Shown in pieces: positions 10,425 to 17,642 of a stretch of DNA of 64,000 nt (positions are counted from its first letter, which is position 1; every line of letters begins with the position of its first letter). The notes below the pieces were generated by a model. The model was not told where the DNA came from. It was given only the letters and a program-made list of their open reading frames with translations, and did no database searches. Position numbers and translations under genes: made by a program. Source of the DNA: Acidobacteriota bacterium (lineage in GTDB: Bacteria; Acidobacteriota; Vicinamibacteria; JAXLQT01); contig JAXLQT010000008.1 of assembly GCA_046331505.1 (NCBI GenBank), positions 11,567 through 75,566 of the forward strand, in the 5' to 3' direction.

Positions 10425-10838
10425 ATGAGCGTACCTAGATTCCTGGTCCTGACCGTCCTGCTCCTCCCATCGCCGGCAACGGCGAATGGCGTGGCGGACC
10501 GCATCCATCTCTGGACGCGGATCCCTGGAAGCGATCTCGTGGTTGCCGAGGGGCAGGCGTTCGGCCTGGCATTCTCGGTCTCGAGGGAGTCCAACGTCAT
10601 GATTCTCGCCCTCGACCGGACGGGCGGCGTTCGCGTCCTCTTCCCGAATCGCATCCATACGTCCGGACGCGTCCAAGCCGGTACGGTCGCGACGATCGAC
10701 GCCATCTACCCGGACGCGGCGCTGGGCGGCGCCCTGCCGCAGCTGTCGTCGAGGCCACCCGCCGCGGCGCTCGTCGCCAAGGCGACGGGCCGGAACGTCG
10801 TCGATACGCCCGTCGCCACGGCGCGGGCGACCGGATGA
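10425..10838 (+). CDS. Secreted hypothetical protein (signal peptide).
   Basis: Strong RBS GAGAGGAGGAG. N-terminal hydrophobic h-region LVLTVLLLPSPATANG. Its stop overlaps the next ORF (ATGA). Confidence 0.5.
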   Translation: MSVPRFLVLTVLLLPSPATANGVADRIHLWTRIPGSDLVVAEGQAFGLAFSVSRESNVMILALDRTGGVRVLFPNRIHTSGRVQAGTVATIDAIYPDAALGGALPQLSSRPPAAALVAKATGRNVVDTPVATARATG

Positions 10839-11095
10839 GGAAAGCGCGCGATCGTCGTGCAACCGGCGGAGCGGCGTGCCGCTCCGCCGTCCTGCGTGGC
10901 GCCTCGCCAGGAGCCGCAGCAGAGAGTGGCGTCCCCACGGGCCGCTCCTCCGAAGCCGGCACCGCTCGTCTCGCCGAGGCCCGCCCCTTACCAGCCGCCG
11001 AGGCTGCCGCAGGTCCCACCGCGAAGGCCCGTGCCGAAGGCACCCGCGACACCCGCGCCCCAGAGGCGATAGAGGCGCTACCGAGGAAGACCACC

Positions 11096-11734
11096 ATGAT
11101 GTTCCACAACCGAAGCCATGCCGCCAACCTTCTCGTGCAGGAGCTTGCGGCGCATCGAGGGCAGGGGCCGCTCGTCCTCGGCATCCCGGGGGGAGGCGTG
11201 CCGATGGCCCGCCACATCGCGGACGCTCTCGGCGCTGATCTCGACGTCGTGCTCGTCAGGAAGATCGGACACCCGTCGTCGAAGGAGGTCGCCATCGGCG
11301 CGATCGGGGAGGACGGCGAGGTCCGGCTGGGGCCGGGCGCGGCCGGCGTCTCCACCGCCTACGTCGATGCCGAGGCCGCCCGGCAGTTCTCGAGGATCGC
11401 CCGGATGCGGGCGCTATTGACCCCGAGCCACGCCGCCGTCGACGTCCGTGGACGTACGTGCATCGTGGTGGACGACGGCGCAGCCACGGGCCACACCATG
11501 CTTGCGGCGGTGCACTCGCTCCACGCGCGGGGAGCGAAGAGGGTCGTTGCGGCGCTCCCGGTGGCTTCGGTCGAAGCCTACTGGCTCCTTGCGTCGGTCG
11601 CCGACGACGTGGTGTGCCTCCACGCCCCGGAGGGGTTTCACTCCGTCGGGCACTTCTACGAAGACTTCAGGCCCGTGCGGGACGACGAGGTGGCGGCGGC
11701 GCTCGGATCCTCGGAGGCGCGCGTCACGGCCTGA
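11096..11734 (+). CDS. Predicted phosphoribosyltransferase (PRTase, type I).
   Basis: MMFHNRSHAANLLVQELAAHRG...LVLGIPGGGVPMARHIADALGADLDVVLVRKIG...CIVVDDGAATGHTMLAAV is a PRTase fold. This family is often Usp-associated. Confidence 0.75.
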   Translation: MMFHNRSHAANLLVQELAAHRGQGPLVLGIPGGGVPMARHIADALGADLDVVLVRKIGHPSSKEVAIGAIGEDGEVRLGPGAAGVSTAYVDAEAARQFSRIARMRALLTPSHAAVDVRGRTCIVVDDGAATGHTMLAAVHSLHARGAKRVVAALPVASVEAYWLLASVADDVVCLHAPEGFHSVGHFYEDFRPVRDDEVAAALGSSEARVTA

Positions 11735-13087
11735 CGCGCGGCGGCGCGCGCACCCGCGGCTTCCCGCGCCTCGCGGCCGGCTTCTACCGTCAGGTCCCGG
11801 GCGCCGAAGGCGACGCCGATCGCCTTCAGGAACCCGTTGGGAGGAACGCCGCCGGCGAAGATCCAGGCGAAGTCGTTCGGCAGCTCCTGCCGGGCCCCGT
11901 CGACCTCGAGGATCGCCGCGTCCGGCGTGAAGCACACGGGATGCGAGCGGAGCAGGACGCGGAGCTTCCCGGCTCTCCGGCACGCCTCGAGACGGTGGGC
12001 GTTGCGCTCCTTGATGCGTGAGAAACGGTCCTGGCGGTAGGACAGTGTGACGTCGTTGCCGGGCTGCGATGCGAGCCCCATCGCCGCCTCGACCGCGCTG
12101 TCGCCTCCGCCCACCACGAGAAGGCGCTTTCCCGTGTAGTGATCCGCCTCGATCAGACGGTACATGACCTTGGGAAGCTCCTCACCCGGGATGCCGAGCT
12201 TGCGCGGCGTACCTGCGCGTCCGAGAGCGAGGACAACGGCGCGCGCACGGTAGGCGCTCCTCTCGGTGACGACCTCGAAGAGCCCGTCCCTGCCCTCGAT
12301 GGACTGGACGGGCTCGCCCGTGCGTATGCTCACGTCCTCGCGCGCCAGGAGGCGCCGCCAGATGGCCAGGAGCTCCTCCTTCGAGAGCTCGGTCTTCCGG
12401 AAGCGGCCGTAGAGGGGGAGCTCCACGGGTGAGGTCATCACGAGCTTCTGTCGTGGGTACTTCGACACCGTACCGCCGATCTCGTCGCGCTCCAGCGTGA
12501 CGTAGCGGAGGCCCCGCTCGATCGCGCGCAGCGTGGCGCTGATCCCCGCCGGCCCGGCTCCCACGATCACGACGTCGAGGGGACCGGCCTCGGCGCGCGG
12601 GGCGGTGCGGCGGGCGGCGATGATGTCGATGCAGTCGCGGCCCTGGTTGACGGCATTCTTGATGAGGGCGAGGCCTCCGAGCTCGCCGGCGATGAACTGG
12701 TTCGGCAGGTTCGTCTCGTTTTCCCTCGTGAGGAACGGGAGGTCCGCGGCATACCCGGGCTTGCCATCGTCATCTCGATGGCACCGACGGGGGCAGGCGT
12801 CGGCGCACAGGCCGTGGCCGATGCAGCGATGGCCTCCCGATCCGCGCCTTGCCGCCGAGGAGCGCGAGCACTTCGCCCTCGGGACAGACGCTCGTGCATC
12901 CCCCGCAGCCGATGCAGCGGGACGTGTCGATGTGAGGGGTGCTGGCGGCGCGGGCCCTCGGATGACGCCTTCCCGCGCTCCGACGCGCGGCGCGCTCGGT
13001 GCTCCCGCGCGGCGGCCGCCTTCTGGTAGCGAAGGACGAAGACGGCGGTCAGGAGGCTCGCGAGGGCGAACGCGACGGCGGTGTCCA
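11656..13087 (-). CDS. TM-anchored ferredoxin (2x[4Fe-4S]) fused to an FAD/NAD(P)-binding oxidoreductase. The frame is disrupted near 12940-12990.
   Basis: The C-terminal 304 aa (track ORF 11656..12570) have GxGxxG VVIVGAGPAGIS...LLVVGGGDSAVE. The same frame stays open upstream and encodes RCIGCGGCTSVCP...RCIGHGLCADACP ferredoxin motifs with no in-frame start. An N-terminal TM helix (VDTAVAFALASLLTAVFVL) sits in another frame, from the GTG at about 13087. Confidence 0.55.
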
Positions 13088-13089
13088 CG

Positions 13090-14034
13090 TCAGAAGTAGC
13101 CCATCGTGATGACGACGCCCACATGGATCGCGACCAGGATGGCGAGCGTGTAGCTGAAGGGCCGGTGGACGACGTGCCACAGGCGGAAGACCTGCTGGGC
13201 GCGGCCGAGGAAGATCACCTTCTTGGCGGTGGATGCCTCGCGCCTCGCGGTGGCGATGGCGTGCTCGAGATCGGCTCGCGAGGTGGAGAGAAACCCGCCG
13301 AGAGCGCGCACGCGCTCCGGGAACGGCACGGCGCGCCGCCGAAGGCGCGCGACGCCGACCGCCTGCCGCACGTCGACGGCCACCATCGTCCCCAGCGCCG
13401 CGAGGGTGGACATCTCCTCCACGCGCGCGGGGCTTGGAAGACACAGGAGCAGGCCGAGATGCTCCTCCGGGACGAGCCGCTCGTCGGCGAGCGCGGCGGA
13501 TGCGCGCGCCAGTGTCTCCTGGATCTCCTTGAGGGAGAGCTCCGCCCGCGCCAGGCGGCGCGGGATCTGGGCGTAGAGATAGCGCCCGATCACGCCGCTC
13601 AGCGCAACCGCGACCATGATCCAGAACGCCATTCCCGCGAAGCCGCGCGACTTGAAGGACGCGTGAAATGCAACCACGACAGGCGTGAAGAGGCCGAGGA
13701 GCACGTGGTAGTCGAGCCAGCGCCGGGAGCTTCCCCTCCGGGAGAGCCAGCTCCAGCGCTTCCGGAGCGGGTAGAGGAAGATGCCGAGAAGCATGGCGAG
13801 GGCCGCGAACCCGAGCCGCAGTCCGAGCGTACCGGTGGGGCGCAGGAGGGCGTGCCTCTCGGAGAAGGGGCGCTCCGCGAAGGGCAGCATGTAGTAGCGG
13901 GCTCCAAAGGCCGCGAGGCCGAGGAGCGACGCGATGGCCACCGAATAGGATGCGGCGAGCCGCCGGCGATGGCCGCGTTCGGGATCGGCAAGACGCGGCG
14001 CCGCGATCGGGCGGGGGAGCGTCGCGGTGCTCAC
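13090..14034 (-). CDS. His-rich 4-TM membrane protein (candidate b-type heme / ferric-reductase-like transmembrane component).
   Basis: The GTG start overlaps the stop of the upstream gene (GTGA). TM helices carry paired His (DYHVLL...AFHASF; RLWHVVHRPF...AIHVG) and YPLRKR motifs. The first 260 codons of track ORF 13090..14814 were judged spurious. Confidence 0.5.
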   Translation of the reverse strand: MSTATLPRPIAAPRLADPERGHRRRLAASYSVAIASLLGLAAFGARYYMLPFAERPFSERHALLRPTGTLGLRLGFAALAMLLGIFLYPLRKRWSWLSRRGSSRRWLDYHVLLGLFTPVVVAFHASFKSRGFAGMAFWIMVAVALSGVIGRYLYAQIPRRLARAELSLKEIQETLARASAALADERLVPEEHLGLLLCLPSPARVEEMSTLAALGTMVAVDVRQAVGVARLRRRAVPFPERVRALGGFLSTSRADLEHAIATARREASTAKKVIFLGRAQQVFRLWHVVHRPFSYTLAILVAIHVGVVITMGYF

Positions 14035-14852
14035 CGTGTGGGTTCCGGCTCGGCACTCGCCGAGATCCGCTCGTCCGTGGAGACCGAGAAGCGCCGGTAG
14101 TCCGTGAATCGATGTGTGTTTCGCCAGTGCTGCCTCGGCGTCGCGACCTCGATGCTGGCGACAGAGGGGAACCAGTGCCGCTCGGCGACGTCCGGAAACA
14201 CCGGTGCGAACTGCTCGTCCGCGCGGAGCACGTCGAGGCCCACGTCGGTCATGCTGTCCTCGACCGAGGCAAGGATGCGTGCGATCACGCCCGTGCGGAC
14301 GTCGATCCACGCCGTCCCCGAGAGGTCGAGCGGATACTCCCGCCCGCGGAGCGTGAGGGCCGCGGGAGATCGCGTCCCTCGCAGATGGTGGAACGCGATC
14401 TTCTCGAGGGAGCGGCCGCCGACGACCTCCCGGCCCGTCGCGGAGAACTGGAAGGACGACGCATAGGCCGGGTGGAAGATGAGGAACAGCATCGCGAAGC
14501 CGTTGCTGACCAGCATCGATGGCGTGTCCGCGTGGGTTGCCGCCTCGGCCACCGGGTGGCGCGATTCGTCGACGGTGAGATCGCCTCCCGAATCGCCGAG
14601 GAGGACGAGGTAGTGGTACCTGGAGGCCAGCTCTTCCTTGACGCTCTGGTCCGGGCCGAGCTTCTCCTGGCGCACCTCCTCGACACACTGGACGTCGGAG
14701 AGCTGGTCCAGGAATCCGGCCACCTGCTTGCCGGTGCGGTCCAGCACGACGCCAAGGTCGACCGCGTCCGGCGTCCCGCCGAGCGCCAAGGGCGATCGCG
14801 CGGGGTCGAGACACGCAACAATGCCAATGGCGATGCGGGCCGCGGGCCTCAT
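14031..14852 (-). CDS. Periplasmic or lipoprotein-like hypothetical protein.
   Basis: MRPAARIAIGIVAC signal with a lipobox-like Cys. Its stop overlaps the downstream start and its start overlaps the upstream stop (ATGA). No recognisable domain. Confidence 0.5.
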   Translation of the reverse strand: MRPAARIAIGIVACLDPARSPLALGGTPDAVDLGVVLDRTGKQVAGFLDQLSDVQCVEEVRQEKLGPDQSVKEELASRYHYLVLLGDSGGDLTVDESRHPVAEAATHADTPSMLVSNGFAMLFLIFHPAYASSFQFSATGREVVGGRSLEKIAFHHLRGTRSPAALTLRGREYPLDLSGTAWIDVRTGVIARILASVEDSMTDVGLDVLRADEQFAPVFPDVAERHWFPSVASIEVATPRQHWRNTHRFTDYRRFSVSTDERISASAEPEPTR

Positions 14853-16588
14853 CGGCTCGACCGCCTCGTGTCGAAGATGTACCCGACCGATGCCATCCAC
14901 TGGTCGTAGCTGAACTGTCCGCGGCTCATCGTGTAGCCTCCCTGGAGGAAGTAGTGGGTGCCGAGGACCACGTCCAGGTTCGCGGTGACGAAGGCCGCGC
15001 GATCCGCCGTGGCGAGCGGCGAGCTGAAGGACTGGACGCCGGCGAGGACCTCGACGCGGAGCGCCTCGGTCATGCTACGCGAGAGCGAGAGCGAGGCGTA
15101 GGAGCCGTCGCCGAGCGAGCTGTTGAACCTCGCCCAGTGGGCGTCCGCGCGAGCGCCGAGCCACGGGACGCGGGCCCACGTGACGCCGTAGGTCTGGTTC
15201 CACGACGTGCGGGCGTCACCCGTGCGATCGCTCTGGCCCACCGCGCCGTAGATCCAGACGCCGCGCACGGCCTCGACGCGGGCTCCCAGGTTGATCCCCT
15301 GGAAGAGGTAGCGGTCGAGCAACCCGGTGCCCACGAGCTTGGGATCGAACGCTGGAAGGTCGCGGAAGTAGTTGTGCTGGAGCGAGAGCTCGAGCCTCGG
15401 CACCGGCTGGAGGCGGACCGTCAGGAAGTGGCGGGAGAGACCGGCACCGGCGGAAGGGTCCTGGCCGCGCGCCCCGTCGATCTGCAGTGAGTCGTAGATC
15501 GAGAGCACGCTCTTGAAGAAGAGACCGTTCTCGAAGAAGACGAACGGGCGATCGACGGTCCATCCGAGTGTGCTGACGCCGAGCCCCGACGTGGTCGTGT
15601 AGCGGAACCCTTCGTAGCTACCGCCCTCGAGGTTGACGAACCCTCCGGCGATGCGCCGGTCGGGAGCATAGCTCCAGGACGTCGGATCCGGAGTCGTGCC
15701 GGCGAACACGCCGACCGTGCCGCCCCGGCCGAAACGGCGGCCGCCGTAGCCGCCGTCGATGGTGTCGAGGCTGGGCGCCCAGGGGAGGTAGATGCGCCCG
15801 ATGCCGGCGACCCACCGAGCATTCGGGTTGTCGTAGGTCAATCCGATGTGGTAGGTCCGGTTGACGATGTCCTGCAGCGTCTGCGAGCCCGTCGACGAGC
15901 CCGATCCCTCCCGGCCGCGGAAGTACCCCGAGAGGTTCCAGTAGCTGCCGCCGATGCGGGTGAGGTCCGGACGCATCACGATGCCGAACGTGGAAGCGCT
16001 CGATCCGGCATCGCCGTGCTCCGACGTCGAACCGACGTCCAGCCCCAGGCGCATGCGGAAGCGGTTGACGGACGGCAGTGGCGGGCAGGGCACCTCGTCG
16101 CGCACCTCCTCGTCGAGGGGATCTCCCTCGGTGAAGGTGACGACGGCCGGGTAGCGCCGGCTCGGGCTCAGGGTCCGCTGCTCCACGAGCGCGCGCGCGT
16201 CGAGCGTCGACAGTATCGCGACGTCGCCGACGGCGAGGGCACGCGACGTCGATGGCACGTCGGCGACCGCCGAGACCTCGGCGACGCCGGAGATCGTGAG
16301 CCGCGCGACGATCCGCGGATCGGATGGGTCGACGGTGGCGCCCGGGAGGTCGGGAGGGCCTCCGTCCCGGATGAACAGGGTCATCCCGATCGAGAGGCCG
16401 GCGCTGCTGCCCCCGTCGAGGTACAGCACGCCCTGCGCGACGTACTTCACACGGAACGTCGTGCGAACGTCGGGCGCCGCGGCGCCCGGATCCGGCTCCT
16501 GGGCGATGGCGGCCATCGCGGCGCGGAGAAGGACCGCGCCGGAGATCGCGGCCCGCCGTCGCGCGCGGGAATGCGGCTGGTGCGCCAT
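14849..16588 (-). CDS. Secreted large protein, outer-membrane beta-barrel-like (hypothetical).
   Basis: Signal-like N-terminus (AISGAVLLRAAMAAIAQE). Gly/Tyr/Ser-rich alternating segments are typical of OM barrels. It is the first gene of a 4-gene coupled operon. Confidence 0.5.
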   Translation of the reverse strand: MAHQPHSRARRRAAISGAVLLRAAMAAIAQEPDPGAAAPDVRTTFRVKYVAQGVLYLDGGSSAGLSIGMTLFIRDGGPPDLPGATVDPSDPRIVARLTISGVAEVSAVADVPSTSRALAVGDVAILSTLDARALVEQRTLSPSRRYPAVVTFTEGDPLDEEVRDEVPCPPLPSVNRFRMRLGLDVGSTSEHGDAGSSASTFGIVMRPDLTRIGGSYWNLSGYFRGREGSGSSTGSQTLQDIVNRTYHIGLTYDNPNARWVAGIGRIYLPWAPSLDTIDGGYGGRRFGRGGTVGVFAGTTPDPTSWSYAPDRRIAGGFVNLEGGSYEGFRYTTTSGLGVSTLGWTVDRPFVFFENGLFFKSVLSIYDSLQIDGARGQDPSAGAGLSRHFLTVRLQPVPRLELSLQHNYFRDLPAFDPKLVGTGLLDRYLFQGINLGARVEAVRGVWIYGAVGQSDRTGDARTSWNQTYGVTWARVPWLGARADAHWARFNSSLGDGSYASLSLSRSMTEALRVEVLAGVQSFSSPLATADRAAFVTANLDVVLGTHYFLQGGYTMSRGQFSYDQWMASVGYIFDTRRSSR

Positions 16589-16703: not shown

Positions 16704-17468
16704 TCAGGATGCCTTGCTCTCTCCCTGCCACCAGCGCGCGATGAGATCGCTGCGGCGCTTCACTCCGACCTTGCGCAGGAGGTTTCCCACGTGGAACTTC
16801 GCCGTGCGCTCGGAGATGTGGAGCCGGGATCCGATCTCCTTGTTGGAGAGGTTGTCGAGCAGCGCGCGCAGCACCTCCTGCTCCCGCCGGCTCAGCTCGC
16901 CGAGGTACGACGAGACGGGATGGCGCGCGGGCGTCACGAGGGAGTCGACGAAGACGGAGACCACCTCTCGCGACGCCCAGAGCTTCCCGCGGGCGACCTG
17001 GTCCACCGCTTCGCGAAACCGCCTGGGAGCGTCTCGGTAGGAGAGCAGTCCCTTCACGCCGAGCCGGAGGAACGGGATCGCGTTCGCAGCGCCGAACGTC
17101 TCGCTGAGGACGAGCACCGAGGCCGAGGGCATGCGCTCGCGGATCGCGCGGACCAGCGCCAGGTCGTGATGGAGCGACACGCAGGCGTCGATGGCGTAGA
17201 CCCGGCATCGGGGCAGTGTGGCGCAGAAGGCCTCGGTGTCGGCGCCGAGGGACATGCGCGCCGCCGCGACCGGGCGATGGCTCTTTCCGAGGAGCCGCGC
17301 GAGCTCGGCGGCCACCATCGGGTGGATCGCGACGACACAGGCGCCGTCAGTCTCCGCGCGTCGCTTGGACACGGGAAGAACGTAGCCGAACCGCGGCCCA
17401 GGGTCAATCGTGCGGCTGGGCCGGACCGGCCGGAAGGACAGGTGGGCTGCCTGTACCAGGACTGTCAT
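16704..17468 (-). CDS. LuxR/NarL-family transcriptional regulator (atypical receiver plus HTH).
   Basis: C-terminal HTH LSRREQEVLRALLDNLSNKEIGSRLHISERTAKFHVGNLLRKVGV. Start at ATG 17468 is uncertain. Confidence 0.65.
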   Translation of the reverse strand: MTVLVQAAHLSFRPVRPSRTIDPGPRFGYVLPVSKRRAETDGACVVAIHPMVAAELARLLGKSHRPVAAARMSLGADTEAFCATLPRCRVYAIDACVSLHHDLALVRAIRERMPSASVLVLSETFGAANAIPFLRLGVKGLLSYRDAPRRFREAVDQVARGKLWASREVVSVFVDSLVTPARHPVSSYLGELSRREQEVLRALLDNLSNKEIGSRLHISERTAKFHVGNLLRKVGVKRRSDLIARWWQGESKAS

Positions 17469-17522: not shown

Positions 17523-17642
17523 TGACCGCCCGCCCGGGACGACATGAACAGGCGCTCCCCGCGGGCACACTCTCCGGCGACTGCACCGCGCGGGGGCGGC
17601 CACCGCGAGCGCGGCCCGGAAGCACGAGCAGAGGAGTCGAGA

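Follow-up and report, generated by a model that had tools for sequence, protein, structure and literature searches.

PCC3, a set of four genes reported from Proteobacteria by He et al. 2017 (PMC5566968), is the closest described counterpart of the cluster treated here, whose genes A to D occupy positions 11656-16588 on the minus strand of a 64,000-nucleotide stretch of contig JAXLQT010000008.1 from an Acidobacteriota metagenome-assembled genome (MAG), called the window below. Its products are a porin, a repeat-rich extracellular cytochrome with a median of 34 hemes and an abundance of Thr, Ser, Ala and Gly, a periplasmic cytochrome (median 21 hemes, range 21-27, with a low ratio of amino acids to hemes) and an inner-membrane protein (IMP) of ~300 amino acids (aa) with five transmembrane (TM) helices, an SGxxG motif on TM4 and a Wx3Hx13H motif on each of TM3 and TM5 (PMC5566968). 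In the model of He et al. 2017 the IMP is an FRD-like di-heme b protein that exchanges electrons with quinone, and the system serves Fe(II) oxidation (PMC5566968). PCC3 is found in Fe(II) oxidisers and is expressed there, and in later literature, as of 2025-2026, it is given as a set of four genes and as functionally unverified (e.g. Hoover et al. 2023, PMC10734462). No iron-sulfur (FeS) flavoprotein is mentioned in the main text or supplements of He et al. 2017 (PMC5566968).

Genes A to D of the window, together with two neighbouring genes for multiheme c-type cytochromes, probably belong to a six-gene, PCC3-type conduit spanning the cell envelope, in which electrons would pass from NAD(P)H to D, from D to C and on to the cytochromes by way of A; we give this reading a probability of about 0.55. 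The original prediction, made from the DNA letters alone, had described a unit of four genes in a combination not reported before, and had left the 23-heme and 34-heme cytochromes unlinked to it. Six genes make up the cluster, and its published match is PCC3, for which an FRD-like two-heme b IMP was proposed by He et al. 2017. The six genes are as follows.

14849-16588, minus strand: gene A, 579 aa, intact open reading frame, in the PCC3 porin position
14031-14852, minus strand: gene B, 273 aa, intact open reading frame, predicted Sec-exported periplasmic protein with a LolA-superfamily fold
13090-14034, minus strand: gene C, 314 aa, intact open reading frame, predicted PCC3-type inner-membrane protein with five TM helices
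11656-13088, minus strand: gene D, ~477 aa if repaired, predicted TM anchor, FeS domain and TrxR/YpdA-like flavoprotein
17544-19589, plus strand: multiheme cytochrome 1, 23 CxxCH motifs, 29.6 aa per heme
19657-22242, plus strand: multiheme cytochrome 2, 34 CxxCH motifs, 26 aa per heme, start at 19657 taken from the gene call of a second assembly (L003, see below)

The likeness to PCC3 concerns C, the cytochromes and the position of A. In its size, its five TM helices, its SGxxG and both of its Wx3Hx13H motifs, C agrees with the IMP, a match made to the published description and not by sequence; the two cytochromes carry 23 hemes (21-27 in PCC3) and 34 hemes (the PCC3 median), the second being built of repeats and rich in T/S/A/G; and gene A stands where PCC3 has its porin. 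PCC3 was, however, described in Proteobacteria as four genes, quinone-linked and aimed at Fe(II) oxidation, whereas the present locus and its relatives possess an anchored FeS flavoprotein, D, and the acidobacterial version further adds B, with its LolA fold, and in most cases an AMIN domain in the protein at the porin position. The PCC3-type cluster itself is already described as a prediction in iron-oxidising bacteria; what seems to be new is D as the constant FeS-flavoprotein partner of C, plus the acidobacterial LolA-fold and AMIN additions.

Gene order in the window and in related loci

The coordinates of A, B and C given in the original prediction, and the ATGA and GTGA couplings that it noted, hold in the window: the ATG start of B shares ATGA with the TGA stop of A, and the GTG start of C (locus tag U0166_09395 in the source MAG) shares GTGA with the TGA stop of B. 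The TGA stop of C (13092-13090) is followed by one base and then by a GTG (TGAcGTG), so that the start of D lies one base from the stop of C; this junction had also been recognised, with the GTG placed at 13087, although it is at 13088.

Genome scanning with a profile of C returned at least 587 relatives, and the best 80 loci, which derive from Terriglobia/Acidobacteriota MAGs and one Verrucomicrobiia MAG, were examined. The order A-B-C-D on a common strand is kept in essentially all of them, and the four genes grouped by the original prediction are syntenic in ~80 genome loci. In 74 of 81 loci the genes just upstream, in the same orientation, encode cytochromes of ~23 and 25-58 hemes; in the loci without this pair C lies too near a contig end for that region to be seen. 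The window differs from its relatives in that its cytochrome pair is divergent from A-D. Departures from the common order were seen in a few loci: D is inverted downstream of C in six (L040, L053, L055, L059, L061 and L065, from Acidoferrales and other Terriglobia MAGs) and lies beyond 10 kb of C in two (L050 and L070), while in L014 A is displaced ~8 kb upstream.

A second scan used a distant C (P0285, ~30% identical to that of the window) as the query and found proteins 35-56% identical to P0285 on metagenome contigs with a GC content of 31-72%. Retained in this distant clade are C, D, one cytochrome of 20 hemes and another of 16-47, and an A-like protein, with the two cytochromes and the A-like protein in that order either after D (C-D-cytochrome-cytochrome-A-like) or before it (C-cytochrome-cytochrome-A-like-D). 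In all seven long contexts that were examined singly, representing several phyla, D lies within 10 kb of C (L001, plasmid pEMTOL02 of Emticicia oligotrophica DSM 17448 (L166), L167, L168, a Calditrichota genome, L170 and L171). The constant pairing of C with D in the contexts examined suggests NAD(P)H, and not quinones, as the source of the electrons.

The Emticicia example comes from a cultured aerobic member of the Bacteroidota, where the genes run ccsA-C-D-cytochrome-cytochrome-538-aa protein-GW-domain protein on the 100-kb plasmid (record 78197-90781). RefSeq labels parts of this set 'hypothetical protein', 'NAD(P)-binding domain-containing protein' and 'cytochrome c3 family protein'. The location of the module on a plasmid implies horizontal mobility. 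Two apparent fusions, P0253 and P0281, were set aside as evidence of domain fusion, the contig of P0253 being fragmented and uninformative. A 742-aa apparent fusion containing a C domain was seen in L084 (ENA contig_37192), together with a 138-aa Pyr_redox piece and many ORFs of less than 100 aa, and is probably an artefact of an indel-rich long-read assembly.

The membrane pair C and D

The AlphaFold2 (AF2) model of C, with a pLDDT of 74, contains five TM helices (residues 18-48, 69-91, 103-128, 132-156 and 276-310), where the original prediction had counted four; TM4 and TM5 are separated by a helical insert of ~110 aa on the cytoplasmic side. Among 37 representatives of C with 27-53% identity, H110, H290 and H304 never vary, and H124 and H287 are kept in at least 90%. 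Thirteen residues intervene between H110 and H124 on TM3 and again between H290 and H304 on TM5, and the motifs W106-x3-H110-x13-H124, S146-G-x-x-G150 and W286-x3-H290-x13-H304 are invariant or at least 90% conserved. The earlier proposal that the His pairs of C are placed as ligands of two hemes is supported by this conservation of four His and by the equal spacing of both pairs. C is accordingly predicted to be a two-heme b cytochrome, with one heme held by H110 and H290 on the cytoplasmic side and the other by H124 and H304 on the periplasmic side, the sides being assigned from positive-inside counts, which put the N-terminus of C inside.

Comparison of C with Pfam gives 16.3 bits for Ferric_reduct (PF01794, cutoff 28) and 21.4 bits for DUF4405 (PF14358, cutoff 26.7). 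Sub-threshold matches to Ferric_reduct occur in 14 of the 37 relatives (best E = 1.5e-4), to DUF4405 in 18 (best E = 1.6e-5), to Ni_hydr_CYTB in ten and to PepSY_TM in three, all four being di-heme b families. No other kind of family recurs in more than three of the 37; the weak similarities of C lead to redox proteins and not to a non-redox family. A profile search of C against PDB sequences returned nothing meaningful, the NCBIfam search of A, B and C found no family, and no quinone-site motif was identified.

Protein D, when its reading frame is repaired, scores above the Pfam thresholds for Fer4_10 (42.9 bits, threshold 25.5) and Pyr_redox_3 (136.6 bits), and below the cutoffs for YpdA (TIGR04018, 151 bits, cutoff 340) and TrxR (TIGR01292, 70 bits, cutoff 343). 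Its two dinucleotide motifs, GAGPAG and GGGDSA, are both present, and a search of the flavoprotein part for a redox-active CxxC found none. By these scores D would be related to the YpdA/TrxR flavoproteins in fold class, not a member of those families. The 64 acidobacterial D proteins share, at the N-terminus, a TM helix and after it a K/R-rich linker, a pattern that puts most of D in the cytoplasm. They also have two GxGxxG motifs, and of their FeS motifs one is the canonical CxxCxxCxxxCP and the other the invariant CxGHGxCxxxCP.

The original prediction of two 4Fe-4S ferredoxin motifs was right in that both motifs are encoded, but the second, CxxHxxCxxxCP, has His in place of its second Cys in the window, in the consensus of the 64 homologs and in 33 of 35 distant homologs. 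The anchor helix is kept in 34 of these 35, while the second Cys of motif 1 is replaced in 27 (26 with Ser or Thr, one with Ile). With changes at both sites, the FeS domain is not a textbook 2x[4Fe-4S] and its cluster type is uncertain. In the distant clade (L086-L165) motif 1 usually reads CxxS/TxxCxxxCP and motif 2 CxGHGxCxxxCP, so neither site there may be a standard four-Cys 4Fe-4S site.

In the window as given, D is disrupted. The span 11656-13088 is 1433 nt long, which is no multiple of three, and is not a single ORF, as the original prediction had it (11656-13087); its motifs are scattered over alternating frames. The N-terminal hydrophobic helix, the two ferredoxin-like motifs and the two dinucleotide-binding motifs are all encoded in the DNA, with the TM helix in one frame, CIGCGGCTSVCP in a second, CIGHGLCADACP in the third, the VGAIEMTM that follows CIGHGLCADACP back in the first, and the flavoprotein part in the third, where the earliest start codon is at 12570. 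Four frame changes fall between 12751 and 12939, within 190 nt.

The same locus was compared with that in a Logan assembly of the same sequencing run, SRR26348421 (L003). There D is uninterrupted through its 338 codons, up to the contig end, and aligns gap-free with the 64 homologs. The two assemblies differ at ten positions in 8.9 kb, nine of which, five substitutions and four indels, form one cluster.

12698-12947, minus strand: cluster within D of nine differences from the independent assembly, including four frame-breaking indel events

The indels are at 12939 (+1), 12839/40 (-2), 12793 (+1) and 12751 (-1). The tenth difference, at 16087, is the only one outside this 250-bp cluster and falls in A, where residue 168 is Cys in the window, Arg in L003 and Arg or Lys in 31 of 31 homologs. 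Reading D as a single ORF or as the product of a programmed frameshift was rejected in view of four frame changes in 190 nt, the collinear homologs and the intact copy from the same run.

Decay of the operon would be another way to account for these differences, D being a true pseudogene, R168C in A a damaging change and the system non-functional in the population of the MAG. The four frame-breaking indels and five substitutions in D, plus the substitution in A, are what decay would leave, and at the inspected sites (the D region and residue 168 of A) it is the window that departs from the consensus and L003 that follows it. Yet all but one of the ten differences are confined to 250 bp, the other 1.1 kb of D and 7 kb of neighbouring genes are otherwise identical, and such clustering points to a local assembly or polishing error over decay; moreover, three of the four indels lie in or beside short runs of C or G, and the intact version is present in reads of the same run. 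Decay is thus unlikely, and the breakage of D is most likely a local assembly or polishing error. Apart from this region, the C-terminal tail of D in the window is ~25 residues longer than the family consensus.

Cytochromes, envelope partners and the proposed electron path

Cytochrome 1, whose true start is probably internal with a signal peptide near residue 52, is the predicted counterpart of the periplasmic cytochrome of PCC3, and cytochrome 2 that of the extracellular one. The latter is built of a regular 73-aa, three-heme unit with CxxCH spacings of 32/16/25 that occurs nine times, and contains 10.4% T, 9.8% A, 9.1% G and 7.6% S. Its orthologs have 25-58 hemes, and the copy number of the three-heme unit seems to vary freely. 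In L044 one ORF of 76 hemes is apparently a fusion of both cytochromes.

Protein A is an exported protein that lacks TM helices and is rich in Gly, with aromatic residues. It has more than 3000 homologs at about 55-65% identity, many with PF11741 AMIN; most are 800-1000 aa long, with an N-terminal periplasmic AMIN domain that is absent from A of the window. A has no Pfam hit, a profile search with it against PDB sequences returned nothing meaningful, and Pfam searches over 30-32 homologs each found only AMIN, in the long homologs, for A and noise for B. Weak matches to the A profile are found in the distant clusters on ORFs of ~370-1200 aa beside the cytochromes, and three contexts with called genes have an unannotated neighbour of 538-546 aa. 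From its place in the cluster A would be the outer-membrane protein of the conduit, in the position of the PCC3 porin, and possibly a barrel.

The AF2 model of B (pLDDT 83) was compared with the PDB by Foldseek, which gave 27 matches with probabilities of 0.94-1.0 and E values of 2.7e-6 to 1e-3, among them LolA3 (9tp6), DUF1329 (4z48), NE2245 (3buu), RseB and LprG, with modest TM-scores of 0.36-0.45 for the best. Neither the window protein nor its homologs have a Pfam hit to LolA, LolB or DUF1329. The model indicates a periplasmic protein of the LolA fold, an open beta-barrel with a helical lid. B is not obligately a lipoprotein; the assignment as a lipoprotein, made in the original prediction, was dropped because the lipobox Cys is not conserved in homologs. 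B was not detected in the distant clusters and was seen in the acidobacterial version only. Four residues of this LolA-type cavity protein are invariant, C56, H127, H156 and H247 (motifs FHPYY and PRQHWRNxHRF), a pattern that would suit a bound cofactor or ligand.

From the gene content and coupling, the conserved His and FeS motifs, the topology signals and the co-occurrence of the genes across phyla, we infer a path that includes cofactor binding, an NAD(P)H donor, contact between C and D, and outward flow. D would sit on the cytoplasmic face, held by its single N-terminal TM helix, and its TrxR-like FAD domain would take electrons from NAD(P)H and pass them to two FeS clusters, one of them with the conserved His position. 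The FeS domain of D would then reduce the cytoplasmic-side heme b of C (H110/H290), from which electrons would move to the periplasmic-side heme b (H124/H304) and then to the 23-heme cytochrome in the periplasm. By way of A they would cross the outer membrane to the 34-heme cytochrome outside the cell, and finally reach an external acceptor, e.g. Fe(III) or humic/particulate organic matter. B would be a LolA-fold periplasmic accessory of the acidobacterial version. Outward flow from NAD(P)H is downhill and is helped by the inside-negative membrane potential, while inward flow to NAD(P)+ is not favoured; wherever D is the partner, this speaks for electron disposal and not for uptake. More specifically, C and D may form a quinone-independent NAD(P)H:multiheme-cytochrome oxidoreductase, a split-NADPH-oxidase-like pair that would be the missing entry point of PCC3-type conduits at the inner membrane, a proposal we make tentatively and hold at somewhat less than even odds.

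The published PCC3 model offers a different role for C, as a quinone-reactive cytochrome b linking the quinone pool to the periplasmic cytochrome, possibly for Fe(II) oxidation or extracellular electron uptake, with D an unrelated or regulatory neighbour. He et al. 2017 proposed just this for a like IMP (PMC5566968), PCC3 is present and expressed in Fe(II) oxidisers, and cytochromes b of the Ni_hydr_CYTB type, a family that C weakly matches, are quinone-reactive. Against this, D stays with C over at least three gene orders and in the seven long contexts from several phyla, and a chance neighbour would not persist through such shuffling; D also has its own membrane anchor and starts one base past the stop of C, and no quinone-site motif was identified. 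A quinone-linked C with an incidental D is therefore unlikely.

A maintenance or maturation reductase, which would reduce heme iron at attachment or keep the cytochromes poised, or else a FoxB/PepSY-type ferric reductase supplying iron to so heme-rich a system, is a third role that could be assigned to C and D. The Emticicia cluster opens with the cytochrome c synthase gene ccsA directly upstream of C, and proteins of 23-58 hemes are a large maturation load; PepSY_TM/FoxB relatives are siderophore reductases (PMC11334425), and C weakly matches PepSY_TM. However, ccsA is absent from the acidobacterial and the other examined clusters, and a conduit accounts better for the strict association with a porin-like protein and two wire-like cytochromes. 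The known reductant pathways of maturation are, moreover, thiol-based (CcdA/DsbD) and not heme-b based. Such roles are very improbable.

Further genes of the neighbourhood are as follows.

16704-17468, minus strand: LuxR/GerE-family regulator, Pfam GerE 61.9 bits, 254-aa gene call from L003
22273-24375, minus strand: NrfD-like membrane protein, 700 aa
24245-25447, minus strand: Fer4_11 FeS protein
25155-25895, minus strand: tetraheme c-type cytochrome
10835-11734, plus strand: phosphoribosyltransferase-domain gene, convergent with D

The regulator is directly upstream of A, on the same strand, between A-D and the divergent cytochrome pair. D and the convergent phosphoribosyltransferase-domain gene overlap at their 3' ends by ~80 nt (11656-11734). 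The tetraheme, Fer4_11 and NrfD-like genes come directly after the 34-heme cytochrome gene and are convergent to it, and this set is a quinone-interacting module of the NrfCD/ACIII type.

Several points weigh against an NAD(P)H-fed conduit. The NrfD/FeS/tetraheme module could be an alternative, quinone-linked entry to the cytochromes. The role put forward for PCC3, Fe(II) oxidation through a quinone-linked IMP, has the opposite direction and another partner, and electron export from NAD(P)H by itself conserves no energy. The original proteobacterial PCC3 loci lie outside the set for which the pairing of C with D was counted. All Pfam matches of C are under their gathering thresholds, a crude test of beta-amphipathicity in A, bearing on its barrel nature, was not significant (z = 1.0), and the reading frame of D is broken in the window sequence.

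Iron-oxidising and other bacteria widely carry PCC3 clusters, and one question about them is how their giant cytochromes are linked to metabolism. If an entry through D and C is correct, the expected direction and energetics become those of electron disposal from NAD(P)H in place of quinone-linked uptake, and the abundant Acidobacteriota of soil and peat, Bacteroidota, Calditrichota and others would unload reducing equivalents extracellularly, bypassing the quinone pool. Hundreds of peat, bog and soil genomes of Terriglobia contain the acidobacterial version, and in these habitats extracellular electron transfer to organic matter has been put forward as the reason for low methane yields (Fiorito et al. 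2026, bioRxiv 10.64898/2026.05.27.727921); the cluster is not among the four, EET1-EET4, of that study. Emticicia oligotrophica DSM 17448, with its plasmid pEMTOL02, provides a cultured carrier for genetics (EMTOL_RS21090-21110).

Comparison with other known systems

The arrangement proposed for D and C resembles that in formate dehydrogenase-N (Fdn, FdnH/FdnI) and in the [NiFe]-hydrogenase small subunit with HyaC, where an FeS protein with a single TM helix feeds a two-heme b subunit and where, in the hydrogenases, the cluster beside the partner subunit is His-ligated. The FeS subunit of Fdn and the hydrogenases is, however, periplasmic, and the endpoint is quinone. The Tmc and Hmc complexes of sulfate reducers likewise join periplasmic multiheme cytochromes, via a cytochrome b, to a cytoplasmic FeS protein, but this partner is HdrD-like and has no flavin/NAD(P) domain.

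MtrCAB, the Geobacter Pcc/Ext conduits and the peat clusters EET1-EET4 share with the conduit proposed here a periplasmic and an extracellular multiheme cytochrome and an outer-membrane protein. The electron donors of Mtr and Pcc are quinol dehydrogenases (CymA, ImcH and CbcL). EET1 and EET2 are found in the same habitat and phylum, and identity with them was considered and rejected: EET1 consists of a porin, an NHL propeller and a cytochrome, and EET2 is Mtr-like, with 8-13 hemes; neither has the C/D pair or proteins of 23-58 hemes (Fiorito et al. 2026). FAD and 4Fe-4S are not mentioned in the text or supplement of that study. The verrucomicrobial cluster of a porin and multiheme cytochromes (He et al. 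2017, mSphere) was also rejected as a match, its periplasmic cytochrome having eight hemes.

DUF4405, FezC, PepSY-like (FoxB) and MsrQ-like proteins form a structural group of membrane cytochromes with four His; heme b binding was shown for DUF4405 and FezC, and transmembrane electron transfer has been proposed (PMC11334425). C shares with this group the four conserved central His in a compact TM bundle, and DUF4405 is its commonest weak Pfam match. The group is, however, tied to flavinylated (ApbE) extracytosolic proteins, siderophore reduction or ferrosomes, with no cytochrome c wire, porin or FeS-flavoprotein partner reported (PMC11334425).

A two-component precedent for the proposed pair is MsrQ-Fre, which is NOX-like (PMC12525009, PMC5676040). 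In MsrQ-Fre and NOX a membrane protein that holds two hemes b by His pairs on TM3 and TM5 takes electrons from a cytoplasmic NAD(P)H flavoprotein and passes them to a periplasmic or external acceptor, and C and D are predicted to match them in each of these respects; with 13 residues between the His of both pairs, C also has the NOX spacing, which is 12 on TM5 in some NOX. C differs in having five TM helices instead of six and in staying under the PF01794 threshold, and in that a giant multiheme cytochrome takes the place of MsrP or O2 as the proposed acceptor. D is TrxR/YpdA-like, contains FeS motifs and has its own TM anchor, unlike the FNR-type domain of NOX or the soluble Fre. Of the split NOX/ferric-reductase-type pathway put forward in the original prediction, the two-heme-b-like nature of C and the coupling of C with D across phyla hold, and an FNR-type dehydrogenase does not; with a TrxR/YpdA-like dehydrogenase in that place, the resemblance to NOX would be functional and only partly one of homology.

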